Positions 20,904-42,235 of a stretch of DNA of 64,000 nt are shown one piece after another. Origin of the DNA: Pirellulaceae bacterium. GTDB lineage: Bacteria; Planctomycetota; Planctomycetia; Pirellulales; Pirellulaceae. The number at the start of each line of letters is the position of its first letter. Position 1 is the first letter of the stretch. The stretch is from positions 87,511 to 151,510 of the forward strand of contig JAWKTN010000003.1 of assembly GCA_041399065.1 (NCBI GenBank), written 5' to 3'. Below the pieces are notes generated by a model. The model had not been told where the DNA came from, made no database searches, and saw nothing but the letters and a program-made list of their open reading frames with translations. The position numbers and the translations under genes were made by a program.

Positions 20904-21334
20904 CCACCGCTACCGCCCCCTCACGACGGTCGCCTCGCCCCAACTCTTCCCGCCATAGGGAGTTGCGGCGAGGCGAAACGCGATTTCACGGCGTGTTCTG
21001 GGTAATTCCTTACGAGAGCGAGTGGGCCCCGTCCACTTCTTTTTTTGGCAGCCCATTTGTGGCAGCCCGCCATCAATTCCGCATCAATTCCGAACGTTCC
21101 ATCCCCCGAACCGCAGAAAACGCGGAAATTTTCGAAACTTGTAGCATAACCGTGGGGATGTGAATACAATAGGGCTTAACGTCTCGGCAAGAAAACCGTG
21201 ACGGTCGTCAGCATTCGACATTGGCAAAAAATTCGACATTAACAAACATCAGGCCGTTCAGCGATTTTCGTGGGCTGCTCCCTCGGAACAGAGATAGCCC
21301 GTACATACTTTCAGCAAAATGTGGAGTCCCAGAT

Positions 21335-24300
21335 ATGTTCCCACGTATCCGTTCGCAACGATCGTTTGCCATGTTGGCCTTCGGCACCTGGGTCGTGTCG
21401 ACATGGTTGACAACCGCCGCGGTAGCGGACCAGCAGGCAATGCTGGCCACCTACGATCAGCGGGGGGAAACGTATTTTGCCCTGGGTCTGCAACCGGGAC
21501 AGGAATTGGCACCAGCGGCAGCGCGCGACGTGGTGGTGTTGTTTGACACCTCGGCCAGCCAAACGGGTGTGTACCGCGACGATGCGCTGGCGGCGTTGGA
21601 GGAACTGGGCAGTCGATTGTCATCACAGGATCGCGTCCGATTGGTGGCGGTCGATATTCGGCCAGCGGATGTGACGGGGGAGTTTGTGGCGGCGAATTCG
21701 GACGCTTACCAGGCAGCGGTCGTGGCACTGGAGCAACGCGTTCCGCTTGGAGCCACAGACATGTCACTGGCGTTGTCGTATGCCGTCAAGTGTTTTGTGA
21801 AAGAGACGGCCGGTGTTCACCGAGTCGTATACATTGGCGATGGTCTCAGTCGGGCGAACCTGTTGGATTCGAAGGAGTTTGCCGAGTTGAGTGAGCAGCT
21901 AGTATCGCTGCGGGTGTCGGTATCGGCGTTTGCGATTGGTCCGCAAAGTGACATTGCTTTATTGGCGGCGATCTGCAATCAAACGGGGGGCAATCTGTTG
22001 ATCGACAATCCTGAAATCACCCCTCAAGCGGCGGGGCTTGAATTGGCCCGTTCCGTGTTGGGTGCCGTTGCCTGGCCCACGGATGTCCAACTGCCAGAAC
22101 AATTGGCTCAGGTTTATCCGACGCAACTTCCTCCGTTGCGATCTGATCGTGACACGATTTTGGTAGGTACATTGTCGAATCGTTCGGAACAGCCGTTGCC
22201 GGTCCAGGTGACGGCTTCCGTGGACGGCAAACCGACCACACTGAAATGGTCGGTCGCGCCCGCGGTTTCCAATGACGATCATGCGTACCTGCCGCGGCTG
22301 TTGGAATTGGCCGAGGCCGATCAAGGGCGCACGTTGCCTACGCTTGGCAGCGATGGACTGCGGGAAGTTCGCCGACTGCTGCTGGCCGACGCAGACACTT
22401 TTGCCAAACTCGGTGCCCAAGCCTTGGCCAGTGGCGACCACGAAGGCGCTCAACGGTTGGCCGACGCCGCATTGAAATTGGATCCGTCCAATTCAAAGGC
22501 GGAAGTGTTACATGCCGCCAGCGATCGGGGCCCTGTCGCCACCCCATCGCCGCTGCCCGAAGAAGACGGCGACGAGCCGGTATTGCGTTTGGGACAACGG
22601 CTTGCTCCCGATCCTTTCAATCCTTCGGGCCAAGAGGAGATTGTTGGCACGCCCGTCGAATCGCCATTCATCGATGCCCCGATTGATGGTACGGTCTTGC
22701 CGGCGCAAGCCATTGAATCGGTTCCAGCCCCGTTCGCCGGCACACCCGGTGGTGTGATCAGTGACAATGGCAGCTTCCTCAATGAAGTCGAACGCCGACG
22801 CAAGGCGATCGAAGGACGGGTCAAGGCGGAAGTTCGTGACGGGTTGGTGTCGGCACGTAACAATATGGCGACCAATCCCGAAGCGGCGATCGAAGATCTG
22901 AAACTGCTGTTGCAACAGGTCGTTCGCACGCCAGACATCGGCGCCGACACCCGCTCGCAAATGATTGAAGAATTGGAATCCGGGATTCGCGAATCGCAAC
23001 GCCGCAAATTTGAAAAGGATGAACGCGATGCCTGGGCCCTGTCCAACAAAGCTGCCGCCGAAGATCGCCAACGTATCCACGACGAGATGATGCGCGACGA
23101 AGTTCGCCTGAAGCAACTGATGGCTCGCTTTAACGCCATGATGGACGAAGGACGTTACCGAAAGGCCCTGGAAGTTGCCGTGCATGCCGAAGAATTGGAC
23201 TCGCGTGGCGTCGTTCCCCATAACGCTCGCTTGCTCGCCAACCTCGTCGGCAACTACGAACAAGCTCGCTACCTTCAACAACTCAAGGAAGAAGGCTTCA
23301 TCAACGCCATGATCGAAGTCCAACGTGCTCATATCCCGACTCCGGATGAACCACCATTGACCTACCCCAGCGCCGAAGTCTGGCAAGCGCTGACCAAACG
23401 CCGTGAGAAATGGAAGTCGATGGACCTGGCCGCCGGCAACAACCCGCAAGAAGAAAAGATCTCGCGGGCGCTCAATGAAGAGACCAGCGCCGAGTTTATC
23501 GAAACGCCATTGTCCGATGCCGTCGCTACCCTGGCGGAAAAACACGGTATCAACATCGAACTCGATACGCGCGCCCTGGAAGATATGGGCGTCGACAAGT
23601 CGACGCCCATCAGCCGCAACCTGTCGGGCATCACCCTCCGCTCCTTCCTGCGTTTGATCCTCAAAGAACTCGACCTCACCTACGTCATCCGTGACGAAGT
23701 GCTCCTCATCACGTCCCAAGAAGAAGCCGAATTGGCGCTGATCACCAAAGTCTATCCGGTCGCCGACCTTGTCCTCCCCATCAGCTCAGGAGGCATGGGC
23801 GGAATGGGTGGCATGGGCATGATGGGCGGCATGGGCGGAATGGGAATGGGCGGCATGGGAGGCGGAATGGGTGGCATGGGCATGGGTGGTATGGGCGGAA
23901 TGGGTGGTATGGGCATGGGCGGAATGGGTATGGGTGGAATGGGCATGGGTGGAATGGGAGGCATGGGCGGAATGGGAGGCATGGGCGGAATGTTCAATGT
24001 CGATGATTCCGTTTCCTTTTCGGCCTACGCTGTCGACGACACGCTCAGCTTGGGTAGCAAAGCCCCAGCGGGCGTCAACGATACTGCTCCTTCACTCGAC
24101 TCGAACGAGCTTCGTCCCATTACCTTGGAAGCGGAGCCCAATCTGACCGAAACGCAACAATGGGATCGCTACTTTACGCAACTCAACGAAAGCCCTGCAT
24201 ATCGTCAGCAATCCGACGAGCCGGGTGTGACGGTACAGCGTGAGAAGCACAACGCTCGGGTTCGCGAAACGGTCCGTCAGTTGATGAATGACAAGAAGTT

Positions 24301-25597
24301 CACTGCGGTCCAGGCGATAATCATGTCGGCCTTGCGTCACGGACATCCACAGCCGTGGATGTACGAGGCGTTGGGATTGGCGATGCAAGCCGGGGGCGCA
24401 CCGGCGGAGGACCTGGAACGAGCTTTGATGTCGACGGCGGATTTCAGCCAGACGTTGGACGAAATGTATTATCTGGCACGATATCTGTCACGAGTTGGAT
24501 TGGACGGACGCGCGTTGCAGATGTACCGCGAGATCTCCCAGGCCAATCCAACACGGCCCGAGCCGTATGTCGAGGCACTTGCGGTGGCCCAGCGAGTCCA
24601 AGATCTGGAAACGATTCAATGGGCCTGTGTCGGGATCCTGAAGCAGGCCTGGCCCAGCGACGAGGCAGTCGTCGAAGCTCGCGCACGTCGTGCCGCCGTA
24701 TTGGCAATGAAGACGCTTCAGGAAAGTGGTCGCGAGTCGGAAGCCCGCGAGTTCCGGGATGCACTTAATCGGGCCTTGGTACGCGACTGTGTTGCCAAAG
24801 TGGAATGGACCGGTAATGCCGACATCGACATCATGATCGAGGAACCGTCCGGCACGGTCTGTTCGTTACGCAATCAACGCACTGTTGCTGGCGGAGTGAT
24901 CTTGGGTGACACTTCTTCGATTGTGGGACGCCCCAATGGCAGCAACTCGTTTAACGAAACGTATGTCTGCCCCGAAGCATTTGCTGGCCGCTATCGCCTG
25001 GTCATTCGCAAGATCTGGGGAGACGTTACCGCTGGCAAGGTGACGGTTGAGATCACCAAAAACGTTGGCACGAGCCAACCCAAGACTATCCGTCAACAGA
25101 TACCGATTGGCAGCGACGACGCGATGGTCGTGTTTGACCTGGACGAAGGTCGTCGCGTAGAACCGTTGGACGAACAGCAAGTTGCCAACGCCGTTCACAA
25201 GCACATCGAGGTAGGCCGTGCCGTGTTGGCTCAGCAAGTTAGCGACACCGCCAGCAGCGACGCAGCATTGGACCTGGCCCTGGCTCGCCGTGGATTCGGT
25301 TTGGGCAACGCGAACCTGCGCAATCTGCTGGGACGTTCGGCTGTCGGATTTCAGCCTGTGATCACGACGCTTCCAGAAGGCACCACGCTATCAGCTACCG
25401 CCGTCGTCTCCTCCGATCGACGTTACGTACGGATTAACGCCACACCATTTTTCTCGGCGATCCGCGACGTGTTTACGTTCAACTTCGTCACCGGCGATCA
25501 GACGCAAGTTGAGAATAACGGCGTCGGCAACCTGGGGAACTCAGGCAACAACGGCAACAATGCCGATAACGGCGATAACGGCGACGCGGCACAGTAA
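21335..25597 (+). CDS. Large secreted VWA (MIDAS) domain protein with a secretin/TonB-N-like (STN-like) domain and a Gly/Met low-complexity tract
   Basis: Start chosen at the ATG at 21335 (MFPRIRSQR..., GGAG 7 nt upstream, signal peptide). A VWA MIDAS motif is present (VVVLFDTSASQTG). A mid-protein segment (FIETPLSDAVATLAEKHGINIELD...LDLTYVIRDEVLLITSQEEAE) resembles secretin/TonB short N-terminal domains. A 70-aa (GGM)n tract is encoded at 23782-23990. Confidence 0.8.
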   Translation: MFPRIRSQRSFAMLAFGTWVVSTWLTTAAVADQQAMLATYDQRGETYFALGLQPGQELAPAAARDVVVLFDTSASQTGVYRDDALAALEELGSRLSSQDRVRLVAVDIRPADVTGEFVAANSDAYQAAVVALEQRVPLGATDMSLALSYAVKCFVKETAGVHRVVYIGDGLSRANLLDSKEFAELSEQLVSLRVSVSAFAIGPQSDIALLAAICNQTGGNLLIDNPEITPQAAGLELARSVLGAVAWPTDVQLPEQLAQVYPTQLPPLRSDRDTILVGTLSNRSEQPLPVQVTASVDGKPTTLKWSVAPAVSNDDHAYLPRLLELAEADQGRTLPTLGSDGLREVRRLLLADADTFAKLGAQALASGDHEGAQRLADAALKLDPSNSKAEVLHAASDRGPVATPSPLPEEDGDEPVLRLGQRLAPDPFNPSGQEEIVGTPVESPFIDAPIDGTVLPAQAIESVPAPFAGTPGGVISDNGSFLNEVERRRKAIEGRVKAEVRDGLVSARNNMATNPEAAIEDLKLLLQQVVRTPDIGADTRSQMIEELESGIRESQRRKFEKDERDAWALSNKAAAEDRQRIHDEMMRDEVRLKQLMARFNAMMDEGRYRKALEVAVHAEELDSRGVVPHNARLLANLVGNYEQARYLQQLKEEGFINAMIEVQRAHIPTPDEPPLTYPSAEVWQALTKRREKWKSMDLAAGNNPQEEKISRALNEETSAEFIETPLSDAVATLAEKHGINIELDTRALEDMGVDKSTPISRNLSGITLRSFLRLILKELDLTYVIRDEVLLITSQEEAELALITKVYPVADLVLPISSGGMGGMGGMGMMGGMGGMGMGGMGGGMGGMGMGGMGGMGGMGMGGMGMGGMGMGGMGGMGGMGGMGGMFNVDDSVSFSAYAVDDTLSLGSKAPAGVNDTAPSLDSNELRPITLEAEPNLTETQQWDRYFTQLNESPAYRQQSDEPGVTVQREKHNARVRETVRQLMNDKKFTAVQAIIMSALRHGHPQPWMYEALGLAMQAGGAPAEDLERALMSTADFSQTLDEMYYLARYLSRVGLDGRALQMYREISQANPTRPEPYVEALAVAQRVQDLETIQWACVGILKQAWPSDEAVVEARARRAAVLAMKTLQESGRESEAREFRDALNRALVRDCVAKVEWTGNADIDIMIEEPSGTVCSLRNQRTVAGGVILGDTSSIVGRPNGSNSFNETYVCPEAFAGRYRLVIRKIWGDVTAGKVTVEITKNVGTSQPKTIRQQIPIGSDDAMVVFDLDEGRRVEPLDEQQVANAVHKHIEVGRAVLAQQVSDTASSDAALDLALARRGFGLGNANLRNLLGRSAVGFQPVITTLPEGTTLSATAVVSSDRRYVRINATPFFSAIRDVFTFNFVTGDQTQVENNGVGNLGNSGNNGNNADNGDNGDAAQ
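23782..23990. repeat. Imperfect 9/12-bp repeats (ggcatgggcggaatgggtggc...) encoding an uninterrupted ~70-aa Gly/Met tract
   Basis: Direct read. The antisense ORF 23752..23997 (PMPPIPP...) is its mirror artefact. Confidence 0.9.
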
Positions 25598-25730: not shown

Positions 25731-28700
25731 CTACGCGTTTTCCTCGGTTTCGTCGCCGTTTGCCTTTTCCATTTTGGCGATCAGTGCCGAGTAGGCTTGC
25801 ATGGCCTGGTGGACGCTTTGTCGCAGGGACTCGGTGTCCGCCTGCGTTGATCGTGACAGTTGGAGAAACGGCTGGATCCACCCGTCCATCACAGCGAATT
25901 GCGCCTTGATCACCTCCAGGAAAACCTTGGGCACCTTGTAGGCCACTTGGATTTGCGGGACTTGGATCTGGGGTGCCGGTGGTGGCGTCGGATCGGACAC
26001 AACGGGAACCGGCGGATGCTGCTTCTGTTCCACAAGTTGGCGGGCACCGGCAACGAGTGCCTCACGAATATGATGCAACCCTTCGCTGAAGGTTGTCATT
26101 TGAGCAATCACCTGTGTCATGCGGTCGCCGTCGTCGGTGCTGCCGAGCAATAGATTGCGTTGAAACCGACGACAGATTTCTTGCCAACGTTTTGTCTGTT
26201 CGTCGTCAAGCAGCCCCAACAGTTGACGCAGTTTCAGGAGGTTGGCTTCCGCGTCGGTGGCCAACGTCTGAGCCTGATTCTCGTAGTGCGACAGGATCAA
26301 CTGCTGCAATTCGTCGTCGTTCATCACGGCGACGACGCGTTCCGCCAATTTGTTCATATCGCGGTAGGAGCCCTGCAGCTTGAACGGGGGTTCGGTGCGA
26401 TAGGCAGCGGATTGAGCGGCCGACTGGATGTACTGCTGATTGACTCGCAAGACGACATTGCGCAGTTGAATCAACTTGCGCACGACCGAGACCATTTCGT
26501 TCAATTCGTCGACTGAGTACGTTGCCTCCAAGTCGATTCCCTCGGGCGAATCGGTTTGCGCCAGTTTAATGATGGCGGTCAGGTCCTTGGAGCTTCGCCC
26601 CGCGATAATCGACAAGACGGGGTTGCTCGTCATAGCATTTTCGAGATAACTCAGCTCGAATGCCTCGCGAGAATCTCCGATAACATCGCCCAGGTTGTAG
26701 GTATCGGCTCGGTTGGCCAACATGTCGGGTACCTGAAACTTTTCGCCACTTTCCGTGTACGGATTCCCGGCCATGACGACGGCGACCTTGCGGCCCCGCA
26801 GGTCGTACGTGCGTGGTTGACCATGGTATACGCCTTCGATCTTGCGTTGAGCGTCGCAAAGTGAAATGAATTTTTGCAGGAATTCGGGATGACAATGTTG
26901 AATATCATCAACGTAAATCATCACATTGTCGCCCATCTCCAGTGACAGATTCAGTTTCTCGACTTCCTGGCGGGCGCTGGCGTTGGGCGCTTCGGCCGGA
27001 TCGAGTGATCGCACCTGATGTCCGACCGCCGGACCGTTAATCTTGACGAAGGTGATTCCCAAACGGTTAGCGACATATTCCATCAGCGTCGTTTTGCCGT
27101 AGCCGGGTGGCGAAATCAGCATCAATAGCCCCATCAGATCGGTCCGTTTCGCGTCGCCGGCCGCACCGATTTGCTTGGCGAGGTTGTCGCCGATCAAGGG
27201 GAGATACACCTGATCGATCAACCGATTGCGGACAAAGGAAGTCAACACACGCGGATGAAATTCTTCCAGCCGCAACAGTTTTCGTTTACGGGACGTCAAC
27301 TGATGTTTGGTTTCGACATACTGCTGGTATCGTGGTACAACGTCGCACCGGTACGCATTCAATCGCTGATGAAACGCCGAATAATCCAATTGATAGGCGT
27401 GACCTTGCAACCGGGGATGGTCACCGACAAGTCCTTCGACGACAACAACGTCGTCGCCTCCCAGGACGGGCCGCTGCTTTAATCCGCCGTTGAGCACAAC
27501 CGCTGTCGCCTCGTCGATATCACCGGGTCGCCAGTCGTCCGAGGACGCATCTGTTGTTGCGGCGATCCATTCGCGCAAGGAGCGGAATCGATCACCACTG
27601 GCCAGCGATTCGAGCGTCCCTTGGACTTCGTCCTGGAATCCATCACGGCGCGATTGTTCGTCGAATGCCTTGACGATTCGAGCGGCCCGTGGTCCGACAG
27701 GTAGCAGGGAAGATTGAACGACCAAGTCGAAACAGCACTTCGCCGCATGCTCGACGATATCGACGTCAAACAATGACGACTTCTCCACGAACCTGGTGAT
27801 CTTCCGCTGTAGCAAGTCAATCGCTTGCTGCCGATGTTTTGACTGGGGAAATCGCCGGGCGACGGCCCCGGCCGATCGAATCCGGGAAACGGTGCGACGT
27901 GATGGACTGTCACTTTCTTGACGGTCGAGCAGTGTCTGCCAAAATAAAGCCACAAGCGCCCGTGTTTCTGGCGCGTAACGCAGGAACCCGGCCTGAAGTC
28001 GTTGATGCAGCAAGGCTCGCAACAACTTGAGTGCATCGTGATCGTGAACGCCTTTTACGTACGCTTCACTGTGCCGCGAGGCCATGAATTCATGTACGTG
28101 GTCCCGCAATTGATCGTCGGTGGAGCGTGACAGTCGATTGAGTTCCGCCGTTCCCTCGGCTTCGCCCTGTTGAAGCAGTTGATACGCCAGATACTCGGCT
28201 CGATACACGTCGCGATTCTCGGCAACGGTCTCTTGATCCCATACAAGTCGGCACTCGTCTAACGTTGGGTCCTCGATCTGTTCCAGAAAATTGGTGCCGG
28301 TAAGGTGGAAGAAGTGCCCTTGTTCCCTGCGGATGATCGTGAGGTCCAACGGTTGGACGTTGACGGTGAACCGGTGCTTACCCAGTTGTATGATATTCTC
28401 GCCATCGACAAACAACTCCTGCCGATCTTTCAATTGACGAACGGCATCCTCGCGAATTGTCTTCAGCTGGCTTTGGATGTCGTCCACTTTAACGGAATCT
28501 TCCAACTCGGCCAGCTGCCGAACGATGTCGCGGACTTTATCGACCATCAAGTCGGACGCAAAGTAGGCATGGATCTCGGCGACATCAGTTAGTCCCGCGA
28601 CACGCGTTTCCAGTCCTTTGAGGATCCGCTGAGCGGTCGACATCAAGGCATTCGCTCGTCGATTGCGTGACTCTACCAACGCAACTTTGCGGCTTTCAAA

Positions 28701-30956
28701 CGCGCTGTAGATCTCCTCGCGCTTCTCCCCCAGCTGTACGACAAAATCATCGAATTCCGCGAACCGACCTTCGAGCTCTTCGACTTGCACCATCAACTTC
28801 GTCAGGTATTCTTCGCACTTAGCGGCTGAATTGCATACATCGAGATAGTTGACGAGTGCCTGATTGAGCAATTTGACTTGCGAGTGGAATTCGGCGACCC
28901 CTTCAACCGACAGCAGCTCTTGTTTCTTCTTCTTAAGTGCTGCGCGGGATTGGTTGAGTTGGGCGTAGACGGCGGAGATATCTTCGATAATCGTGGTGCG
29001 TTGCGTCGCATCGTCAATTTTCAAATTGCTAACGACATCGATCAACATCTCCAGACTATCGGACGTCTGACCGAGTTGTTGTTCGAGTTGGTTTGCGTCG
29101 GCCACTTTGGAAAGCTGCCCGATTGCCTCGAGCTGCCGTTGGACTTGATCGACATAGGGCGCCAGCGCGTCATCTCGCAGCAGAAACTCGACGCAATGCG
29201 AGGAACTGTGTTCGATCGCCTGGACAACGTTCTGCTCCAATCTCTCGACGGCCGGCACGTCGACATATCGCAAATCGCGCAGCGTAATAATCTGTCCGCG
29301 CAGGCCGCGCAGTTCGGCGAGCGACGTTACGTAGTCTTGGATTTGTTCATAGCGACGATTGCGCACCTCCTGCAATGCCTTTTCGGTTGCGCGCGTCGTC
29401 TTGACAAACTCGGCTTGCGTATTCTGTCGAACACGCACTACTTTTTCAAATTCGTCGATTGCAGCAACGGCGGCGCTGCGTATTTCCGCGAGCACGGTCC
29501 CCAATTGGAAAGCTTCCTGGTGGTTGATCCAAAAATAGGAATCGAGGACATCGCTGCATTTCTTGGCGAGATCAAGATAAAGATTCGCGTAGGTGTCGTC
29601 CTTTTCGGTGAGATTGATGATCTCATGGCATTCAGCCATTCCGCGCACCAGGTCTTGATTGCCGACTTTGTAGAGGTACGAATCGGTGTCGGCAACGGCG
29701 TCGCTGAGGTCGCTTACAAATGGCGTTTGCCAGATTTGCAGAGCATGGTGGCGCTGCGGTTGGTCGTCTTTCTTGAAGAAAATCAGCTGACCGTTGCGAA
29801 ACAACGAAAAACCGCTGCAGACGATCGGACGCTCGACACGCTGCTCAATCACGTTGTACAACAGCATCACGTAAGTACCGACGTCTCGGTTGTAAAATAC
29901 GTGCAGGTGATCTTCGCCATTGACGGCCGAGATCCGTCGTTCAAACAACAGATTCGAGATTCCGCTCTCAAACGTGCGACACTCGCCCGTCTTCAGATAG
30001 TAACCGCTGGAAAAAATCAGGCCATGCCCTTCGGGCAAGAGGACGCAAGCATCTTTGATCGCGTCCAGTCGCTGCGCCTGCTTCAGCTTTTCGTTGAAGA
30101 CAATGTATCGAAACAACTCTTCTTGATAGGGACGGATCTTCAACAGAATGACATTGTCGAGTATCGTGTAATAGACCTCTGCGTCGTCCAATACTTGATC
30201 GGCATTGTCAACCGGCTCGGCATAAATCCCCTCCCCCGTGTCTGTGTTGTCTTCCACCTTGATCGTCAGATCGCCACCAATTGTCTCGACAAAGAGACGG
30301 TCGTCGATGGAGATGTGCGGGTGGATCCCTTTGCGATGTTGATCCCGCGTCGTGCGTTTCCATTCGAACTCGTGCTGAGGTGGATAACGCACTTCGTGAT
30401 CGCTGCGCGAATCAACATAGGTCAGTTGAGCATCTTGCAGCAACCACTTGAAGGCTTTGATGTCCTGCGAAGTTTTCCCGACTTGAAATACCATGTACAA
30501 GTACGGTCCGCGCACAAAAAACCGGGCAAATGTCGTCTGTTTGTAGTACTTGTAAAGCTGCCGGAAATCGTTTTGAAAGGTCGCATCGGCAAACAAGTCC
30601 AACGGTTGGGACTGAAACACACCGTCGCGATACTGATAGACGGCAAATACATCCGAAAGTTGCGTTTCCGACTTCAGACCAATGTGGACGTTGTACCCAA
30701 AGATGAATCGGTCACCAATGGGCACGATATCTCGCGGAATGCAGTTGTTGTCGGTCGTAATCCGCTCGTTGGCCAGCAGCCGAGTTTCAATCGCGCCGAA
30801 GACGTGCCGACGCGATTGGTTCAGTTTCCCCAGTCGATCCCGCAATTCGCCCGTATGCGACGCGATGCGACTGCGGATGATCTCGTACGTGCTGCGTTCC
30901 AGCTGAACCTTGTCGCTGGTGCCGCCTTCCGATTGCGGGTTCTGTTGCTGTGTCAT
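25731..30956 (-). CDS. Giant (1741 aa) AAA+ ATPase, MoxR/AAA_5-like single P-loop, with extensive coiled-coil regions; function unknown
   Basis: Walker A LISPPGYGKTTL and Walker B MIYVDDIQ. The MoxR-like NP...arginine segment is MAGNPYTESGEKFQVPDMLANRADTYNL. It has an N-terminal ~450-aa non-repetitive domain and a central ~600-aa heptad-rich region. It is the last gene of a three-gene operon with flotillin. Confidence 0.85.
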   Translation of the reverse strand: MTQQQNPQSEGGTSDKVQLERSTYEIIRSRIASHTGELRDRLGKLNQSRRHVFGAIETRLLANERITTDNNCIPRDIVPIGDRFIFGYNVHIGLKSETQLSDVFAVYQYRDGVFQSQPLDLFADATFQNDFRQLYKYYKQTTFARFFVRGPYLYMVFQVGKTSQDIKAFKWLLQDAQLTYVDSRSDHEVRYPPQHEFEWKRTTRDQHRKGIHPHISIDDRLFVETIGGDLTIKVEDNTDTGEGIYAEPVDNADQVLDDAEVYYTILDNVILLKIRPYQEELFRYIVFNEKLKQAQRLDAIKDACVLLPEGHGLIFSSGYYLKTGECRTFESGISNLLFERRISAVNGEDHLHVFYNRDVGTYVMLLYNVIEQRVERPIVCSGFSLFRNGQLIFFKKDDQPQRHHALQIWQTPFVSDLSDAVADTDSYLYKVGNQDLVRGMAECHEIINLTEKDDTYANLYLDLAKKCSDVLDSYFWINHQEAFQLGTVLAEIRSAAVAAIDEFEKVVRVRQNTQAEFVKTTRATEKALQEVRNRRYEQIQDYVTSLAELRGLRGQIITLRDLRYVDVPAVERLEQNVVQAIEHSSSHCVEFLLRDDALAPYVDQVQRQLEAIGQLSKVADANQLEQQLGQTSDSLEMLIDVVSNLKIDDATQRTTIIEDISAVYAQLNQSRAALKKKKQELLSVEGVAEFHSQVKLLNQALVNYLDVCNSAAKCEEYLTKLMVQVEELEGRFAEFDDFVVQLGEKREEIYSAFESRKVALVESRNRRANALMSTAQRILKGLETRVAGLTDVAEIHAYFASDLMVDKVRDIVRQLAELEDSVKVDDIQSQLKTIREDAVRQLKDRQELFVDGENIIQLGKHRFTVNVQPLDLTIIRREQGHFFHLTGTNFLEQIEDPTLDECRLVWDQETVAENRDVYRAEYLAYQLLQQGEAEGTAELNRLSRSTDDQLRDHVHEFMASRHSEAYVKGVHDHDALKLLRALLHQRLQAGFLRYAPETRALVALFWQTLLDRQESDSPSRRTVSRIRSAGAVARRFPQSKHRQQAIDLLQRKITRFVEKSSLFDVDIVEHAAKCCFDLVVQSSLLPVGPRAARIVKAFDEQSRRDGFQDEVQGTLESLASGDRFRSLREWIAATTDASSDDWRPGDIDEATAVVLNGGLKQRPVLGGDDVVVVEGLVGDHPRLQGHAYQLDYSAFHQRLNAYRCDVVPRYQQYVETKHQLTSRKRKLLRLEEFHPRVLTSFVRNRLIDQVYLPLIGDNLAKQIGAAGDAKRTDLMGLLMLISPPGYGKTTLMEYVANRLGITFVKINGPAVGHQVRSLDPAEAPNASARQEVEKLNLSLEMGDNVMIYVDDIQHCHPEFLQKFISLCDAQRKIEGVYHGQPRTYDLRGRKVAVVMAGNPYTESGEKFQVPDMLANRADTYNLGDVIGDSREAFELSYLENAMTSNPVLSIIAGRSSKDLTAIIKLAQTDSPEGIDLEATYSVDELNEMVSVVRKLIQLRNVVLRVNQQYIQSAAQSAAYRTEPPFKLQGSYRDMNKLAERVVAVMNDDELQQLILSHYENQAQTLATDAEANLLKLRQLLGLLDDEQTKRWQEICRRFQRNLLLGSTDDGDRMTQVIAQMTTFSEGLHHIREALVAGARQLVEQKQHPPVPVVSDPTPPPAPQIQVPQIQVAYKVPKVFLEVIKAQFAVMDGWIQPFLQLSRSTQADTESLRQSVHQAMQAYSALIAKMEKANGDETEENA

Positions 30957-30962
30957 GACCGA

Positions 30963-33038
30963 CTAGACGGATGCACCGAGCTTTAGGGTACCAGCGATCG
31001 ACTTGGCAATTCCTGCCTGGTCGGCCATCTCCAATAGCTGTTGCAATTCACTTTTGGCCGAATCGCTGTCGGCCATCGCGATCATCCGGGTGATCAGCGC
31101 GGCGACCGATAGATTCTTGATGTCTTCGGTACCGAGCCCGAATTGCCCGGTGAATTGCCGTAGCTTCTGCTCAAAGTATGCCGGATCTCCGTTAAAGAAC
31201 GATGCCTTGACGTCACTGAGGACGGCACTGCCATTGACCAGGCGGTCCACGGTCTTGGCCGACGTGATGGAACTGACGATCTTGTCAAAGAAGTTGTCGT
31301 CGCCGCCGACGATGTCGATGCGTGCCGACTTGAGTGCGGCACCGACCACCTCGGCCTGGCTGTTGGCGATCGCTCGCTGAGCGTCGATGGCAGCCAATTC
31401 GATTTCCTTGTCTTTGTTCAATCGCAGTTTGAATTCTTCGTGTTCACGTCCAACTCCGTCCAGTAACTTCATCGCTTCAGCCTTTTGCGTAATGCCGTCG
31501 GCATCAGCCGCGAATTTCATTTGCAGGACCTTCGCTTCGGCGGCCCCTTGGCGTTCGATCGCTTCCGCCTTGGCCGACATCCCTTGCGCTTCTGCTCGAG
31601 CCTTTTTCTCCAATACCGCAGCATCTACGTTGCCTTGTTTCTCCGTAGCATCGGCTTTGGCCAACATCACACGAGCCTCCGCCAATCCCATGGCCGCTTC
31701 CTCCGCCGTGACAGCTTCGGCGAACATCTTCTTGGCCGCCGTTTCCTTTTCGGTCGCAGCCCGCTCCGCTTCGGCCTTGATGATCCGTTCTTCGGACAAC
31801 AGCGAAGCCGCTGTCTTGGCAGCCTCGGCCGCTTTGATCTGCCGCACCAACTCGCGTTCCGCTTCCTGCTCGGCCGCCGTTACTGCCACCTTCTTCGTAC
31901 GCTCGGCCGAGGCAAACTCGCGAGTGTCCTTGATCCGCTCTTCTTCCTCCACAACCGCTCGCTCCACAATCACTCGGTCGCGAATCACGTCTTGAATCGC
32001 CTTCTTCTCCTGCTCAACCGCCTTCTCCTTGTCGATTTGCGCCAACGTCACAATCCGCTCACGCTCCGTTGCCTCCAACATCCGGTCTTTCTCAACCCGC
32101 TCGGTTTCAATGGCTTCGGTGCGCACCTTGCTCTTTTGAGCCACTATCACCTGTCGCAGCTTGTTCTCCTCGGCAATCATCAGCTCTTCTTCCGTCGTGA
32201 TCCGAGCTTGCTCGGATCGAAGACGCTGCTGCTGCGCGACAATGTCAGCCTCCGCCCGCTCACGCGATTTCACTTCGGCAATCTCACGCTGCTGCTTCTC
32301 TTCCGCCTCCGCCTGCTGACGTTGTAGCACGAGAATCGCCTCTCGAGCTTCAACGTCTTGCTTGGTCAGCACCTTTTCCTTCTCGCGACGAATTTCATTG
32401 GCTAACATCATCTGCTTGGCCGTCAGGTCGGTGATCTTCTTGATGCCTTCGGCGTCGAGAATGTTGTCCGGGTTCAACTTGTCAACCGGCGTCTGCTCCA
32501 GATAGTCGATCGCCGCGTCGTCGAGGACATAACCATTGAGGTCGGTGCCGATAATCTTGAGAATTTCCTCTTTGAACCGTTCGCGCGAATTGTAGAGTTC
32601 CACGAAATCGAACTGCTTTCCAACCGTTTTAAGCGCCTCCGAGAACTTCGCATCGAATAACTCAATCAGTTCGGCCGAATCTGATCCGCGCACGCAACCC
32701 AATAACTGCGCAACCTGCAACACGTCCTGAGCCGTCTTGTTGACACGGACGAAAAAGACCACCTTGATGTCGGCACGGATGTTGTCGCGACAGATCAACC
32801 CCTCCACGCCGTGACGATAGATCTCGATCCGCTTGACCGAGATATCCATCAATTCGGCCTTCTCCAGAACCGGCACCACGACCATCCCGGTGAAGCTGAC
32901 TTTTGTCCCACGCCAACCGTTGACGACCAACGCCCTGCCCTGCTCGACCTTGCGATAGAGCTTCACCAACATCATCATGGCGCCAAAGAGAATCAACAAC
33001 GCCATCATTACGAGGAACACGGTTACCGTCTGCCACAT
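30963..33038 (-). CDS. Flotillin (SPFH/band-7 domain plus flotillin EA-repeat domain), YqiK/FloT-like
   Basis: 691 aa. N-terminal TM, then an SPFH domain (GRALVVNGWRGTKVSFTGMVVVPVLEKAELMDISVKRIE...), then a long Glu/Ala/Arg-rich coiled-coil typical of flotillins. Confidence 0.9.
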   Translation of the reverse strand: MWQTVTVFLVMMALLILFGAMMMLVKLYRKVEQGRALVVNGWRGTKVSFTGMVVVPVLEKAELMDISVKRIEIYRHGVEGLICRDNIRADIKVVFFVRVNKTAQDVLQVAQLLGCVRGSDSAELIELFDAKFSEALKTVGKQFDFVELYNSRERFKEEILKIIGTDLNGYVLDDAAIDYLEQTPVDKLNPDNILDAEGIKKITDLTAKQMMLANEIRREKEKVLTKQDVEAREAILVLQRQQAEAEEKQQREIAEVKSRERAEADIVAQQQRLRSEQARITTEEELMIAEENKLRQVIVAQKSKVRTEAIETERVEKDRMLEATERERIVTLAQIDKEKAVEQEKKAIQDVIRDRVIVERAVVEEEERIKDTREFASAERTKKVAVTAAEQEAERELVRQIKAAEAAKTAASLLSEERIIKAEAERAATEKETAAKKMFAEAVTAEEAAMGLAEARVMLAKADATEKQGNVDAAVLEKKARAEAQGMSAKAEAIERQGAAEAKVLQMKFAADADGITQKAEAMKLLDGVGREHEEFKLRLNKDKEIELAAIDAQRAIANSQAEVVGAALKSARIDIVGGDDNFFDKIVSSITSAKTVDRLVNGSAVLSDVKASFFNGDPAYFEQKLRQFTGQFGLGTEDIKNLSVAALITRMIAMADSDSAKSELQQLLEMADQAGIAKSIAGTLKLGASV

Positions 33039-33040
33039 GG

Positions 33041-33817
33041 CTACAACTCTCCTCCAAATTCAAAGGGAACTACCCAGTAGATGTTCTTTTCTTCGTCGTG
33101 CTCGACAACTAATGCCTGATCCCCCTTGCATAACTCGGTTCCTTCCCGAGCCCGCACGTTGAGGGTTAGCGGGGCGCCAACTCGTGCCATCTGCCCTTGA
33201 CCGAAAGCTGTCGTAACGGTCGACGACGTAATAGTACAAGTCTTGCCCACAATTCGGGCCGGCAGCTCAACCCCTTGCCTGGCCTTGCGAAAAACATATC
33301 CCAACGGTGTCGTTACAACCTTCGTTACAATCAGCGCCACGACCACATTCGGCACAATCAGCAGCAATGCCAGCCCGGTCCCCAACCCTGGATTCAAATA
33401 GTAGTTGCCCAATATGCTGACAGCCCACATCGTGCTGATCAACGCCGTCGCCCAAATCATCAACGGGACTTCCGCCACATTGAAAAACCGCAGAAACGAA
33501 ACGACGTAGCTGCCAAAGGCATGCTCTCCGCCATCGGCATGGCCACTTAGGTGCCCATCGACGTGGTCCACCATGTCGCCATGAAAATGTCCATCCATCC
33601 CACCACCGTCGCCCGGGAAAACGTCCGGCAATTCATGGTGCAGATGCGCGTCCAGGTGCAGATCGACGTGTCCATCCGGCACGTCAACGTGCGAATCAAG
33701 AAAGTCCAACCCCACTGCTCCTAATAGGAACAACACCCAATAGGCGAACGATGCACCCAATAAGATCGTGAACGGCAAGTTCACTGGAGCTACACAATGT
33801 TGAATGAATTCCCACAT
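33041..33817 (-). CDS. NfeD/YqiJ-like (DUF1449-like) membrane protein with C-terminal OB-fold
   Basis: 258 aa. Resembles E. coli YqiJ: N-terminal TM, then a His/Asp-rich loop (LDSHVDVPDGHVDLHLDAHLHHELPD...HFHGDMVDHVDGHLSGHADGGEH), a second TM pair, and a C-terminal beta-rich domain. The stop lies 2 nt before the flotillin start. Confidence 0.75.
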   Translation of the reverse strand: MWEFIQHCVAPVNLPFTILLGASFAYWVLFLLGAVGLDFLDSHVDVPDGHVDLHLDAHLHHELPDVFPGDGGGMDGHFHGDMVDHVDGHLSGHADGGEHAFGSYVVSFLRFFNVAEVPLMIWATALISTMWAVSILGNYYLNPGLGTGLALLLIVPNVVVALIVTKVVTTPLGYVFRKARQGVELPARIVGKTCTITSSTVTTAFGQGQMARVGAPLTLNVRAREGTELCKGDQALVVEHDEEKNIYWVVPFEFGGEL

Positions 33818-34001
33818 AATTGCACCTTCCTGGCCCTGTGCTGAACATCACGCCGCAATTATAGCTTGCCAGCTCACAGGACGGGGAAGGTGGCGGGGAC
33901 CGTTGCCGTCACCGCTACCCCTAATTCGCGGAGGCAGGAGCGATATTGCGGGAATTCCGTGACGATTCTCGCCGCCTGCCTCCCCCCCTTGAACAACCAG
34001 A

Positions 34002-37511: not shown

Positions 37512-37859
37512 TTAGACGGCTTCCGGGCCGCGCAATCCCGTATCAATTTGGATCGCTTCTGCCACCGGAGTGATGAAAATCTTGCCGTCACCGATTTCGC
37601 CGTCCGGCCCGGATCGCGCTGCTTGAACAACCGTGTCTACCGTGCGGTCGAGAAAATCGTCGTTGACCACAATCTCCAACACGACTTTCCGCAGAAACTG
37701 GATCTTGTACTCGTGCCCCCGATACGTCGCCGTCTGACCACGCTGACGCCCAAACCCTTGGGAATCACAAACCGTCAGTCGCTCGACGCTGACCTTCGAT
37801 AACGCAGCCAACACGGTCTGCAATTTTGGCGGCTGAATGATGGCGGTGATAATCTTCAT
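37512..37859 (-). CDS. glnB: Nitrogen regulatory protein P-II family (GlnB/GlnK-like)
   Basis: 115 aa from the internal Met: MKIITAIIQPPKLQTVLAALSKVSVERLTVCDSQGFGRQRGQTATYRGHEYKIQFLRKVVLEIVVNDDFLDRTVDTVVQAARSGPDGEIGDGKIFITPVAEAIQIDTG. The T-loop has RGHEY. The upstream 93 codons of the ORF-track ORF look non-coding. Confidence 0.85.
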   Translation of the reverse strand: MKIITAIIQPPKLQTVLAALSKVSVERLTVCDSQGFGRQRGQTATYRGHEYKIQFLRKVVLEIVVNDDFLDRTVDTVVQAARSGPDGEIGDGKIFITPVAEAIQIDTGLRGPEAV

Positions 37860-38159
37860 CGTAGGCGTTTTATCGTGAATGGAAACTCTCGTGCAGCGCA
37901 ACGTCCAAAATCCAGTACGGGCTGCTACAGCGTTGCTTAGCGCTTGCAACGTCGAATGCCATCGCCGGCATGTCGGCAAAGCAATTATAACCGAAAGCGA
38001 TCGGTTACGTCTGCTGCCAGAAAGGACCGTGTCGTCCGCAGCAAGAGCAAATCCCGTCCGCCGATAGCGGAAAGAAGCATCGGATGGTGGTCGGCAGACT
38101 CTCCCGGGGTTACAAGGGTCGCTCCCGACCACCACCACATCTGCTTGTTGTCCTGGCGA

Positions 38160-38871: not shown

Positions 38872-40704
38872 CTATCCGAAGTCCCGATTCCACATAGGAA
38901 TCGCGGCAAACAAAGCATCAACCGCTAGTACTGATCCGTTTTGCACGTGATGCGCTCCATCGTTGCTTATTGCTGCAAAGTATGCAGCGCGGTCTGGTGT
39001 CACTCCGTTGTGTGACACACGATTGGACCGCGCACGACTGGCGACCTCCGTGTTTGATGAAAACAGACTGCTGCCCAACCGGCGCAGCCTCGCGTGGATT
39101 GAATCTGCCGTGCCTCGACTCGACGCAGCGTTAGCGGCCCCGATGGCAACAACCGAAGAAGCTGATGATGAGGCTGATGCGGAAGCAGATGATGACGACA
39201 GTGCTGCGGCCGAGGCCACCGTTCGAGCTGCATTGACACCACCTCGTGCATCGGACGACCGCACCGACGTTGTCGCACCCGAGACGAGTATCGAACGCAA
39301 TTGACTGGCGGTCAAGTTCGGATTGGCTGACAATGCCAACGCGGCGACACCGGCCGCTTGCGGCGACGCCATACTAGTCCCACTGTAGATGGCGTAGCGG
39401 TTGTTGGCGACCGTGCTATACACCGACACTCCAGGTGCATCGATCTGAACGGCATTGCTGCTGCCAACTCGATTACTGAACCCCGCCACGGCACTCGACG
39501 AACTGTAAGCCCCCACGGACAACACGTTGCCGAGATTGGCACTATAGCGCGCCGGATAGTCCGGACGACTGTTGCCGCTATTGCCAGCAGCAGCGACGAC
39601 CAAGACATCGTGTTGACTGGCGTAATTGAGCGCCGCATACAAGACGCTACTGGCGAAACTGCTGCCAAGACTCAGATTAATGACGTCCGCACCGTTATCG
39701 ACCGCGTAACGAATTCCCGCGGCGACCGCCGTCAGACTTCCCGATCCATCGGTGCCAAGCACTCGCACTGGCATCAACGTCGCGTCGTAGGCAACTCCCG
39801 TCGCCCCTCGTCCATTCGCTTCGGCGGCCACAATTCCAGCAACATGCGTGCCATGCCCATTCGGATCGTCCGGATTACTATCGTTGCTCGCAAAGTCCCA
39901 ACCGTACACATCGTCGACATAGCCGTTGCGATCGTCATCACGACCGTTGCCTGGGATCTCGTCGGCATTGATCCACAGGTTGCCATCCAAATCGGGATGA
40001 TTCAGGTCAATTCCCGTATCCACAATGGCTACCACAACTCCGTCACCAGTATATCCTTGTGCCCAGACCTCCGGAGCTCGGACGGCGTTCACGCTCCAAT
40101 CGTTGCCGCCACCGTAGTAAGCAACATCGGGGAATTCTGCCGGAACCGTCGTCGTCGGAGTCGTGGTGGGACTGGTCACCGTGGGTGTCGTATCGGGTGT
40201 CGCGGGAGTGGTGGGGGACGTCGCCGGAGGCGTCGGTGCCACCGCCGGCTGCCCCGCAGAAATCGTTAATGAATACGTGCTCGAGAAATACCATCCGTAC
40301 GCATACACCCGGATAAAATACGTCCCGCCCGCAAGATCCACTGAGAGCGACTCCGGACGGGTACCCGAGTTAGTCGATTGGGCGACTACCTGGTACTGCG
40401 AATTGTAGATCCGCACATCCACATCGGCTTGCAAGCCCGTCAGCCCCAACTGCAATTTGCCAGCGTCGATTTGGAAGCGATAGAAATCATTGTAATCTCG
40501 CCGTCCCACCGAATCCGTCCTTTGTTCCGTACCCGATAGCTGACCCAGATTCTGCGCAACAGAAAAGTAATCGTCGAACACAAGTGGCTGCACCGTCGTC
40601 GGCGAGGCCGTCAATAATGCTCGGTTCTCTAGCAATTCACCAGCCAACACTCGTCGTCGGCGTTTCCATTGGCGATTCGTCTGCATCGATTGATTAGTCT
40701 GCAT
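38872..40704 (-). CDS. Secreted S8 (subtilisin-like) serine peptidase with an N-terminal Planctomycete LExRxLL motif and a PPC-like pre-domain
   Basis: Catalytic triad contexts VVAIVDTGIDLNHPDL (Asp), HGTHVAGIVAA (His) and GTSMASPQAAGVAALA (Ser). N-terminal RRRRVLAGELLENRALLTASP. Confidence 0.85.
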   Translation of the reverse strand: MQTNQSMQTNRQWKRRRRVLAGELLENRALLTASPTTVQPLVFDDYFSVAQNLGQLSGTEQRTDSVGRRDYNDFYRFQIDAGKLQLGLTGLQADVDVRIYNSQYQVVAQSTNSGTRPESLSVDLAGGTYFIRVYAYGWYFSSTYSLTISAGQPAVAPTPPATSPTTPATPDTTPTVTSPTTTPTTTVPAEFPDVAYYGGGNDWSVNAVRAPEVWAQGYTGDGVVVAIVDTGIDLNHPDLDGNLWINADEIPGNGRDDDRNGYVDDVYGWDFASNDSNPDDPNGHGTHVAGIVAAEANGRGATGVAYDATLMPVRVLGTDGSGSLTAVAAGIRYAVDNGADVINLSLGSSFASSVLYAALNYASQHDVLVVAAAGNSGNSRPDYPARYSANLGNVLSVGAYSSSSAVAGFSNRVGSSNAVQIDAPGVSVYSTVANNRYAIYSGTSMASPQAAGVAALALSANPNLTASQLRSILVSGATTSVRSSDARGGVNAARTVASAAALSSSSASASASSSASSVVAIGAANAASSRGTADSIHARLRRLGSSLFSSNTEVASRARSNRVSHNGVTPDRAAYFAAISNDGAHHVQNGSVLAVDALFAAIPMWNRDFG

Positions 40705-40753: not shown

Positions 40754-42097
40754 TTATTGCTGGTGGTAACGCGTCCACAGTTCGCTGACTTCGGCGTACC
40801 GCCCCGGCGCGCTGATTCCCAACTCGGCCGCAATTGCATCGGGAGTGGTTCCGGCGGCAAACAACGTACATACAGGCCATCCAGAGCGAACCTCCGTGCC
40901 CACGCTTGGGATGTCGCAAACCATTGGCCACGCTCCGCCGTCACCCCCCGTAACAACTCCCCCGCGTGACAGCACCTCCTCAAGAAACCGCGCTGAAACA
41001 ACGCCAGCACTCGGTGCGAAAAAAATCACCTTTCCCCAAATTTGCAGTTGATGATCAGCGGGAATCGGCCCCCGCTGCAACTGGTCATCTAGCGTGAAAC
41101 CGAGACACGCGTTGACATGATTTCGCACACACGACACTCCGGTCGTTCGCTCCCACAACTCCATCGATGCCGTGTATCGCGGATTCACCTCGACCAGCCA
41201 TATCCGTTGCTCCCCCATACGCGGCTGTCCCCCTTCCGGTTCGATGCCCGGTCCCAGGTGTGATTCGCGGTCCTCCTGATGCTCGAGCACACCAGGCTCG
41301 GAAACGATCGCGTCAATCCCGAATAGTCCTTGCAAGTCAAATCCATCTGCGATGATTGTCCCTAATTGCCACCACTGCTGGCATGTCGCAGCGTCCATCG
41401 ACAACGGTCCGCACGAACCAAGATACTGCCATGCCTCATCGCCAAAGCGATCCGCTGCTCGCCGATCGAAGAGATCTCGCCTATGCCACTGCCGAGTCAC
41501 ACCGAGCAGGTAACAGCCGTCGGACGTGGCCAAGTAGCTGGCCGCGTATGAACGCCCCGGCATCCACTGTTGAAAATAGCAACCTTCTTCAACCACATCG
41601 TCCGCCTCGTGCCTCGCCGCCGACAATCTTCGAACGCGGTTCCCCCCACACGACCGACGAGGCTTGCAGATCCACTCTCCTTCGCTCGGCAGATCGACAA
41701 TTCGTTCATAGACCTGCAGCGTGTTCCAATGGGCCGCCTGCAAGACGGTTGCCAGTCGTACCGGATCACGCACCGCGGTCAATGCCCCTTGATCGTTCCC
41801 CAACAACCGCGCCGCCCGCCCAATCTCCCCAACAACCAACGGATAATTCTCCAAACCGCCAGTGTACATACACATACACTCCTTAAGTTTCCGAGCGATA
41901 GGGAGGGCGGCGTGAGGGTAGTCGTGCGCGGCGAGCTGGCAGGTGCGAGCAATGGCGGCGAGATCACTGTCGGCGAATAGATCGACAGCAGTAACGGACA
42001 GGCCGGCGCGATGAGCCGATTGTGCCGCGGCACGGGCCGAGGCGCCGACGATCAGCAGGTGACGCGGGAACGATGGTGGGTTATTGGGTCGGTTCAT
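40754..42097 (-). CDS. ATP-grasp-fold protein, likely H4MPT-pathway associated (start chosen at the internal Met MNRPNNPP; the ORF extends to 42565)
   Basis: The pre-ATP-grasp Rossmann-like N-terminus (LLIVGASARAAAQSAHRAGLSVTAVDLFADSD) and C-terminal ATP-grasp-like core (IWLVEVNPRYTASMEL) are seen in the sequence. H4MPT-cluster orf5/orf7/MptN-type ligases are ATP-grasp enzymes. The gene is divergent from fae. The extra 156 N-terminal codons are low-complexity and overlap the tandem repeat array. Confidence 0.55.
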   Translation of the reverse strand: MNRPNNPPSFPRHLLIVGASARAAAQSAHRAGLSVTAVDLFADSDLAAIARTCQLAAHDYPHAALPIARKLKECMCMYTGGLENYPLVVGEIGRAARLLGNDQGALTAVRDPVRLATVLQAAHWNTLQVYERIVDLPSEGEWICKPRRSCGGNRVRRLSAARHEADDVVEEGCYFQQWMPGRSYAASYLATSDGCYLLGVTRQWHRRDLFDRRAADRFGDEAWQYLGSCGPLSMDAATCQQWWQLGTIIADGFDLQGLFGIDAIVSEPGVLEHQEDRESHLGPGIEPEGGQPRMGEQRIWLVEVNPRYTASMELWERTTGVSCVRNHVNACLGFTLDDQLQRGPIPADHQLQIWGKVIFFAPSAGVVSARFLEEVLSRGGVVTGGDGGAWPMVCDIPSVGTEVRSGWPVCTLFAAGTTPDAIAAELGISAPGRYAEVSELWTRYHQQ

Positions 42098-42171
42098 GGA
42101 GCGGATGGAACGGGAAGAATGCGACGGATCGAGGGGGGGAAACGGGAAGGAAGACCGTCCCCCATGGACAC

Positions 42172-42235
42172 CAATCTTGCGAGATGCCAATCCTGCGAGA
42201 TGCCAACCCTGCGAGATGCCAATCCTGCGAGATGA
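42172..42235. repeat. Four tandem copies of the 16-bp unit caatcctgcgagatgc in the fae / ATP-grasp divergent intergenic region
   Basis: caatcttgcgagatgc, caatcctgcgagatgc, caaccctgcgagatgc, caatcctgcgagatga. Direct read. Confidence 0.9.

Follow-up and report, generated by a model that had tools for sequence, protein, structure and literature searches.

A stretch of 64,000 nucleotides (nt) from the genome of a Pirellulaceae bacterium—positions 87,511 to 151,510 of contig JAWKTN010000003.1, assembly GCA_041399065.1, and in its full length referred to here as the window—carries three tightly packed minus-strand genes for a small YqiJ/NfeD-like membrane protein, a flotillin, and a giant AAA+ ATPase. 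Judged from its sequence, this locus is a PspA-less, or "abbreviated," member of a widespread membrane-stress module, and its products correspond to BacC, BacD, and BacE of Pseudomonas aeruginosa. The module is of ancient origin and wide occurrence, and its three genes are tightly linked, being near-obligate neighbors with a fixed order in many phyla. As a general picture, we favor a functional ATPase–flotillin/YqiJ machine that takes part in the handling of membrane stress, a reading to which we assign a probability of roughly 60%. The original prediction, made from the letters of this DNA, had taken the genes for one functional and hitherto undescribed module. The near-obligatory association in both directions and in many phyla bears out the first part of this claim, whereas the second part falls: the module is already known from comparative genomics and has partly been studied in P. 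aeruginosa, and the window adds a further PspA-less member.

The operon starts with the YqiJ/NfeD-like gene (33041..33817, minus strand), which encodes an inner-membrane protein of 258 amino acids (aa) of the DUF1449 type, similar to BacC. The flotillin-family SPFH gene follows (30963..33038, minus strand; 691 aa; similar to BacD/PaFlo3), and the third gene encodes the giant soluble AAA+ ATPase (25731..30956, minus strand; 1741 aa; similar to BacE), which the Prokaryotic Genome Annotation Pipeline (PGAP) names "DNA repair ATPase." The gaps of 2 nt and 6 nt between these genes, already part of the original prediction, are exact in the list of open reading frames and in the junction sequences. 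The junction between the YqiJ-like and flotillin genes reads TAG-cc-ATG, where a GGAG ribosome-binding site lies inside the last stretch of the YqiJ-like gene, and the one between the flotillin and ATPase genes reads TAG-tcggtc-ATG. Such small gaps in a three-gene operon are consistent with translational coupling.

How tightly these genes belong together becomes apparent from their neighborhoods in other organisms. More than 4000 homologues of the ATPase are found in a large protein collection, and its DUF3686-containing N-terminal domain is represented by 744 clusters at 50% identity, 265 of them at E ≤ 1e-30. Counting one genome per species, at least 594 species carry a homologue; the best 80 of these belong to Planctomycetota, Bacteroidota, Verrucomicrobiota, Desulfobacterota, Kiritimatiellota, Omnitrophota, and Clostridia, while plasmid records add Actinomycetota, Deinococcota, and Gammaproteobacteria, which brings the total to at least 10 phyla. 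The closest relatives, with 52 to 60% identity, are found in Pirellulaceae, Planctomycetaceae, and other Planctomycetota. Neighborhoods were counted in loci with enough flanking DNA, those seeded with the ATPase being drawn from genomes and those seeded with the flotillin from metagenomes. Going out from the ATPase, a flotillin homologue lies upstream on the same strand in 63/66 loci and a YqiJ-like gene upstream in 60/66. Going out from the flotillin, the ATPase follows within 4 kb downstream in 57/59 loci, and a YqiJ-like gene precedes in 66/69. The neighborhood is thus conserved across phyla, and these reciprocal co-occurrence numbers are an addition of the present analysis. The gene order is also identical in the annotated genome of Gimesia alba and on plasmids of Hymenobacter, Pseudomonas fluorescens (pQBR103), Streptomyces, and Deinococcus. 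The module is hence not specific to Planctomycetes, and nothing ties it to Planctomycete biology; the link to endocytosis-like uptake in these bacteria that had initially been drawn finds no support, given an occurrence in so many species and phyla.

The few exceptions are three genome loci (L017, L033, and L046), in which no flotillin is found within ~7.7 to 9 kb upstream of the ATPase, and two metagenome loci (L113 and L157) with no ATPase within 2.2 to 7.4 kb downstream of the flotillin. In a minority of the Bacteroidota, Verrucomicrobiota, and Desulfobacterota loci (L018, L028, L030, L036, L041, L057, L066, and others), the gap between flotillin and ATPase holds one to three small unrelated genes. 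Inspected by eye, one of their products resembles a DUF559-type endonuclease, and a group from Verrucomicrobiota resembles four-helix bundles. These small genes share no common family and were ruled out as a fourth component.

By its Pfam matches, the 1741-aa protein is a member of the DUF3686/DUF7902 AAA+ ATPase family, with a total length of ~1600 to 1900 aa. Its DUF3686 domain (PF12458; aa 37–475; 29532..30848, minus strand) is matched over profile positions 1–448 of 448 with an E value of 2e-186 and consists of an N-terminal helix followed by a divergent β-propeller-like all-β domain. In the full-length matches listed (~1600–2000 aa), this domain always sits at the N terminus, and shorter matches look like fragments. 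A helical or coiled-coil arm follows (aa ~476–1000; 27957..29531, minus strand) and bears DUF7902 (PF25472; aa 596–680; 28917–29171, minus strand; Pfam E 5e-29). The original prediction had put ~600 aa of heptad-rich coiled coil here. Ravi et al. (mSystems 2024, PMC11237479) call this arm region coiled-coil; the basis for its assignment here is a helix-favoring composition together with DUF7902. A segment at aa ~845 to 975 is highly conserved, with residues that are invariant across phyla. Aside from DUF7902, Pfam returns nothing for the sub-segments of the arm or for the C-terminal tail, and aa 836–1189 have no Pfam match and retrieve one designed protein only from the PDB. No solved relative came out of the PDB, whether it was queried with the full-length profile or with aa 836–1189; apart from the designed protein, the sequence matches were confined to the P-loop (E ~0.003). 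The C-terminal tail (25734..26000, minus strand) comprises a Pro-rich disordered linker (aa ~1653–1675) and a long terminal helix (aa ~1677–1740), as read from the secondary structure of an AlphaFold2 (AF2) model and from the low predicted local distance difference test (pLDDT) score in the linker. This tail is clade-specific and is absent from the ~1630-aa homologues of Bacteroidota, where tblastn coverage ends at aa ~1634. A scan for transmembrane (TM) segments found none in the ATPase, which marks it as soluble. Its homologues carry the same precomputed Pfam set (DUF3686, DUF7902, and a C-terminal AAA+ domain), and with BacE of P. aeruginosa it shares 41% identity over 1715 aa and an identical Pfam architecture.

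The name of this family calls for caution. Pfam titles DUF3686 "ATPase involved in DNA repair," PGAP uses "DNA repair ATPase," and the name has been propagated to thousands of proteins. One might hence regard the protein as a DNA-repair ATPase that merely adjoins a flotillin pair, a view to which weak P-loop-level matches to RuvB, a weak SMC-like match to LmuB, and the presence of yaeQ and recJ downstream of the P. aeruginosa operon lend some color. However, Pfam, NCBIfam, and PDB searches of the ATPase found no DNA-binding or nuclease domain, and the RuvB matches span only ~35 to 55 residues around the P-loop at E values of ~1e-3 to 1e-4. The predicted AAA+ structure is closest to MoxR and dynein rather than to RuvB, and whichever gene served as seed, the partners conserved beside it encode membrane proteins. 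In the other loci examined, recJ and yaeQ are not annotated beside the ATPase, and we found no mention of DUF3686 in the literature—nor of "DNA repair ATPase" together with flotillin. We therefore consider a role in DNA repair very unlikely. Nothing found here backs the name, which appears to be an annotation artefact and would derive from a coiled-coil similarity to SbcC/SMC-type COGs.

The AAA+ core (AAA_5 match; aa 1278–1403; 26748..27125, minus strand) scores above the Pfam gathering threshold for both AAA and AAA_5. It holds the Walker A motif GYGKTT (aa 1285–1290; 27087–27104, minus strand), the Walker B motif IYVDD (aa 1347–1351; 26904–26918, minus strand), and the sensor-region motif AGNPYTESGEKFQVPDMLANRADTYNL (aa 1396–1422), all of which had been named by the original prediction and are present in the translation. 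N1398 is the putative sensor-1 residue and R1416 the putative Arg finger. An AF2 model of aa 1190–1741 (pLDDT 78) displays an AAA+ core with a β-hairpin between α3 and β4 and a helical lid, after which the disordered Pro-rich linker and the long terminal helix follow. In this predicted model, the module is structurally closest to MoxR, dynein, and midasin, and the pre-sensor-1 β-hairpin is present; hence, the initial "MoxR/AAA_5-type" call holds at the level of the fold. An NCBIfam scan of the ATPase yielded just P-loop-level matches to RuvB and Cdc48, far below the cut-offs. In alignments, the Walker A, Walker B, and Arg-finger positions are invariant across phyla. The Walker B motif follows the pattern hhhhDD (D1350–D1351; 26904–26909, minus strand) and not hhhhDE, with both Asp residues invariant in all aligned homologues across phyla. 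The placement in the MoxR/dynein clade and the invariant Asp-Asp Walker B motif are further additions of the present analysis.

MoxR proteins have a length of ~250 to 500 aa and pair with von Willebrand factor A (vWA) proteins, as in CbbQ–CbbO, NorQ–NorD, and RavA–ViaA. Compared with the MoxR AAA+ proteins (CbbQ, NorQ, RavA) and the dynein/midasin clade, the ATPase of the window stands apart by its 1741 aa, its β-propeller head, and its ~700-aa helical arm; compared with MoxR, it also differs in its Asp-Asp Walker B motif and in pairing with a flotillin rather than with a vWA protein. A vWA gene does lie close by (21221–25597, plus strand). Its product is 1458 aa long and begins with a vWA domain; the gene is convergent with that of the ATPase, and 133 nt lie between the two stop codons. 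Given the MoxR-clade fold and the typical partnership of MoxR ATPases, these two could be seen as a MoxR–vWA chaperone pair to which the flotillin is of secondary importance. The vWA gene lies on the opposite strand, however, and the flotillin is present in 63/66 loci. As a conserved association, the pair is refuted, as no vWA homologue occurs in 86 related loci except in an identical contig (a Logan assembly of run SRR2043628), and the chance that such a pair is what the locus encodes is close to negligible. Because the adjacent vWA gene is convergent and absent from other loci, we file the ATPase under the MoxR clade by fold and not as a member of the MoxR family.

The full-length 691-aa protein gives no Pfam match, whereas its first 213 aa, scanned alone, match Band_7/SPFH (PF01145) with an E value of 2.7e-10 and 41 bits against a cut-off of 23.6. 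The SPFH domain (aa 30–170; 32529..32951, minus strand) is preceded by a single N-terminal TM segment (aa 7–25, from the TM scan). After it come a long helical region rich in Ala and Glu and, at the C terminus, a conserved domain. Since positively charged residues follow the TM segment, inspection under the positive-inside rule suggests a membrane-anchored protein with its bulk in the cytoplasm. Orthologues are annotated as "flotillin family protein" or "SPFH domain-containing protein." Identity to BacD of P. aeruginosa is 46% (E 5e-174) and to Escherichia coli YqiK 27% over 471 aa (E 1e-37). The last ~170 aa remain unaligned in the latter comparison, and a cross-phylum alignment shows that this C-terminal region, which is not alignable to YqiK, is conserved in orthologues of other phyla. 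ATPase-linked flotillins thus have a distinct conserved C-terminal domain, which is new from the present analysis. E. coli YqiJ–YqiK and Bacillus subtilis YuaF–FloT resemble the window in that a small NfeD/YqiJ-type membrane protein precedes a TM-anchored flotillin. Nonetheless, the flotillin of the window is ~140 aa longer than YqiK and has the extra conserved C-terminal domain, and E. coli K-12, unlike the window, has no ATPase gene downstream of yqiK.

In the YqiJ-like protein, the TM scan places three segments at aa 18–36, 119–137, and 150–168, and the C-terminal soluble part holds a predicted OB-like domain (aa ~185–255). The Pfam family YqiJ_N (PF21001) is matched with E 0.003 and 18.2 bits, below its cut-off of 23, and pairwise BLASTP against E. 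coli YqiJ reaches only E 0.002. A profile of 29 orthologues drawn from related loci gives a clearer picture, aligning with E. coli YqiJ in hhalign over 179 columns (YqiJ residues 5–197 of 209) with a probability of 96.8% and an E value of 2.6e-10. Among these orthologues, YqiJ_N is matched in 8/29 (best E 3.6e-8) and the NfeD C-terminal domain in 2/29. The OB domain of YuaF in the PDB is a weak match (E 0.75), identity to P. aeruginosa BacC is 24% (E 2e-9), and the Hymenobacter orthologue is annotated as "DUF1449 family protein," the family name that E. coli YqiJ carries as well. As positively charged residues follow TM3, this protein, too, is suggested by inspection under the positive-inside rule to be membrane-anchored with its bulk in the cytoplasm. 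Between TM1 and TM2 lies a His/Asp-rich, Gly-containing loop (DSHVDVPDGHVDLHLDAHLHHE...GHFHGDMVDHVDGHLSGHADGGEH; aa ~40–105; window positions 33500–33700, minus strand), which is predicted to be cytoplasmic and possibly binds metal; it is absent from BacC and much shorter in E. coli YqiJ. The gene identities as first called are correct: a YqiJ/NfeD-like protein, a flotillin, and an AAA+ ATPase of the MoxR clade that bears a long helical arm.

The module has two published precedents. Ravi, Anantharaman, Chen, Datta, Aravind, and Gennaro (bioRxiv 2020; mSystems 2024, PMC11237479) described an operon class in which CesT/Tir and PspA are combined with a three-TM protein of the YqiJ/YuaF type, a band-7/flotillin protein, and a β-propeller–coiled-coil–AAA+ ATPase, and noted that PspA-less "abbreviated operons" are more widely distributed. 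Their Table S3 lists, for Dokdonia donghaensis, CesT_Tir, YqiJ-YuaF, Band-7 + coiled-coil + flotillin, and β-propeller + coiled-coil + AAA-ATPase, and they propose ATP-dependent sub-membrane dynamics for the module (PMC11237479). Domain architectures and gene order match those of the window, and the Bacteroidota loci collected here show the identical arrangement. Differences concern the ATPase: these authors report it "in some cases," whereas the flotillin subfamily of the window pairs with it near-obligately (57/59), and they gave no AAA+ clade, which here is MoxR/dynein-like.

The second precedent is P. aeruginosa, where the ATPase homologue (P0123, "DNA repair ATPase") belongs to a cluster of 3222 near-identical sequences. 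The gene order is DUF2170, PspA_IM30, a 213-aa protein, a 688-aa protein, the ATPase, and PLDc_2, followed by YaeQ, RecJ, and an M4 protease. We equate this locus with bacABCDEF, i.e., PA3732–PA3727, because of its position next to recJ and lasB; likewise, we take BacE (PA14_16190) to be PA3728, since three genes separate its place from recJ and lasB downstream, counting inclusively. The same three proteins occur in the same order as in the window, with identities of 24% (BacC), 46% (BacD), and 41% (BacE). Reverse-transcription PCR by Wallart et al. (Front Microbiol 2024, PMC10948618) placed bacA to bacF on one transcript. Loss of bacA raised all downstream Bac proteins 6- to 13-fold, and the operon has a promoter of the σ54 type. 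Phenotypes reported for the system concern biofilm, rhamnolipid, and virulence, and osmotic stress induces it. A 2026 study (PMC13086221) identifies BacD as PaFlo3 and BacC as a short NfeD protein. In contrast to the P. aeruginosa operon, the window has no BacA (DUF2170/CesT-like), BacB (PspA), or BacF (PLD) and no evident σ54 promoter, and BacC has no counterpart of the His/Asp-rich loop. Homologues of PspA, CesT/DUF2170, and PLD were not detectable in the 64-kb window, as assessed from the domains of the neighboring genes and, for PspA, also by tblastn, and a PspA gene elsewhere in the genome is possible. The locus is hence the three-gene "abbreviated" form.

Several features of the wider family could be read as signs of an anti-phage or abortive-infection system, in which flotillin and YqiJ act as a membrane sensor that triggers the ATPase effector—and, in some versions, a PLD nuclease or lipase. 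The module is carried by large plasmids (pQBR103 and those of Streptomyces, Deinococcus, and Hymenobacter), its flanking genes are variable, some loci have small unrelated genes between the flotillin and the ATPase, in P. aeruginosa the next gene after the ATPase is of the PLD family, and there is the link to the "phage shock" protein PspA. Yet, none of 5027 PADLOC models is matched in a meaningful way (only LmuB in a coiled-coil-type match at 2.7e-5 and mad8 at the P-loop), the neighbors in the window are not defense genes, and the three-gene form has no effector domain. In P. aeruginosa, the operon is chromosomal, the size of the ATPase cluster suggests wide conservation within the species, and the reported phenotypes concern biofilm, rhamnolipid, virulence, and osmotic-stress induction. 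Altogether, a defense function seems improbable to us.

A more serious competitor arises from PspA. In the genome loci seeded with the ATPase, PspA lies upstream in 17/66 and CesT in 15/66, nearly all of them from Bacteroidota, and the same holds for P. aeruginosa; PspA was counted by tblastn with the Hymenobacter protein. On megaplasmid pQBR103 (L004, 1–4200), genes for PspA, for a rhomboid protease, and for a yjfKLMC-like set (DUF2491, DUF350, DUF1190, and glutathionylspermidine synthase) stand ahead of the module, so that this locus combines two PspA contexts given separately by Ravi et al. The ATPase might hence act mainly on PspA/ESCRT-III-like polymers as a stand-in for Vps4, with flotillin and YqiJ providing only a membrane platform. 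The position of the module directly downstream of CesT–PspA in Bacteroidota-type loci and in P. aeruginosa agrees with this, as does its inclusion among the PspA partners by Ravi et al. (PMC11237479) and the observation that bacteria have no Vps4 homologue for PspA (review PMC7619361). PspA is nearby in only 17/66 ATPase-seeded and 27/80 flotillin-seeded loci, however, and in none of the 64 kb of the window; the coupling to flotillin is far tighter than that to PspA, and the AAA+ module is predicted to fall into the MoxR/dynein clade instead of the classical Vps4 clade. We regard such a division of roles as possible but doubtful.

The most likely function of the module, as we infer it, is that of a cytoplasmic hexameric ATPase that would remodel YqiJ-anchored flotillin assemblies under membrane stress. 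The YqiJ-like protein would nucleate or anchor a cytoplasmic flotillin oligomer, possibly a cage as in other SPFH/NfeD pairs; this anchor role is assumed because of structural work on such pairs, e.g., QmcA–YbbJ. The ATPase might form a hexameric ring via its single AAA+ module, and the β-propeller heads at the ends of the long helical arms might bind to the assembly of flotillin and YqiJ—and to PspA in loci that encode it—with the subfamily-specific C-terminal domain of the flotillin as a candidate docking site. During envelope stress, ATP turnover could then assemble, disassemble, or reshape the scaffold or pull clients out of it, jointly with PspA in those loci that have it. This logic would resemble that of Vps4 on ESCRT-III or of FtsH inside HflK/C cages. 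HflK/C–FtsH and prohibitin–m-AAA indeed provide a precedent for an SPFH oligomer that is functionally coupled to an AAA+ hexamer at the membrane. FtsH is a membrane-embedded AAA+ protease of the classical clade, enclosed on the periplasmic side of the HflK/C cage; the ATPase of the window, on the contrary, is a soluble protein of another AAA+ clade and lacks a protease domain.

An ATP-driven remodeler of flotillin assemblies—essentially what earlier authors have proposed—is thus plausible, while several points weigh against it. Contacts between the ATPase and any of flotillin, YqiJ, and PspA are putative, and any link to PspA would have to act in trans, as the window bears no PspA gene. The partner is not nearby in 3/66 ATPase loci and 2/59 flotillin loci. 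The usual catalytic Glu is absent from Walker B and invariantly replaced by Asp; hence, hydrolysis could be slow, or the ATPase might serve as a nucleotide switch. Finally, deletion of paFlo3 in strain PA14 cut biofilm formation by only ~20% and left the other traits tested without marked change (PMC13086221).

As a more specific and tentative proposal, with less than an even chance of being correct, the DUF3686 ATPase might be a dedicated ATP-driven assembly or disassembly motor for flotillin cages, just as Vps4 is for ESCRT-III. Here, recognition of the subfamily-specific C-terminal domain in the flotillin would fall to the propeller heads, and the helical arm would carry the force from the MoxR/dynein-like ring. 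To our knowledge, no SPFH scaffold with its own remodeling ATPase is known in any organism.

Upstream of the operon, 184 nt separate it from the next gene on the same strand (33818..34001). This intergenic region is a candidate promoter: a perfect TATAAT (33863–33858, minus strand) is found by eye 40 nt ahead of the first ATG. It is a candidate only; the consensus scan did not call it, for want of a good −35 hexamer, and scans for promoters and terminators performed no better than on shuffled sequence. A σ54 promoter as in bacA was rejected, as a TGGCA...TTGC upstream of the operon has the wrong spacing. The upstream gene encodes a prenyltransferase-like repeat protein and is conserved in no related locus. 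A second giant open reading frame (47589–52823, plus strand; 1744 aa) was ruled out as a paralogue of the ATPase; it consists of SdrD-B/SpaA/CarboxypepD_reg β-sandwich repeats and is probably a surface or adhesin-like protein, unrelated to the ATPase although nearly equal to it in length. Unrelated to the operon, the window encodes, farther upstream on its strand, a P-II domain fused to an N-terminal extension of ~90 aa (37512–38138, minus strand), a subtilase (S8) with a PPC domain (38872–40704, minus strand), and a 603-aa ATP-grasp protein (40754–42565, minus strand).

The value of the window itself is limited to a Planctomycete-like PspA-less example and the linkage numbers that it adds to the literature; in addition, the analysis flags the misleading annotation as "DNA repair ATPase." Across at least 10 phyla, one flotillin subfamily is paired almost obligately with a giant MoxR/dynein-clade ATPase and is frequently joined to PspA. 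This near-obligate pairing, the PspA link, and the connection to biofilm and virulence in P. aeruginosa make the module a good entry point for asking whether SPFH/PspA scaffolds are remodeled with ATP. If true, a motor for flotillin cages would add an energy-dependent step to the biology of membrane microdomains.

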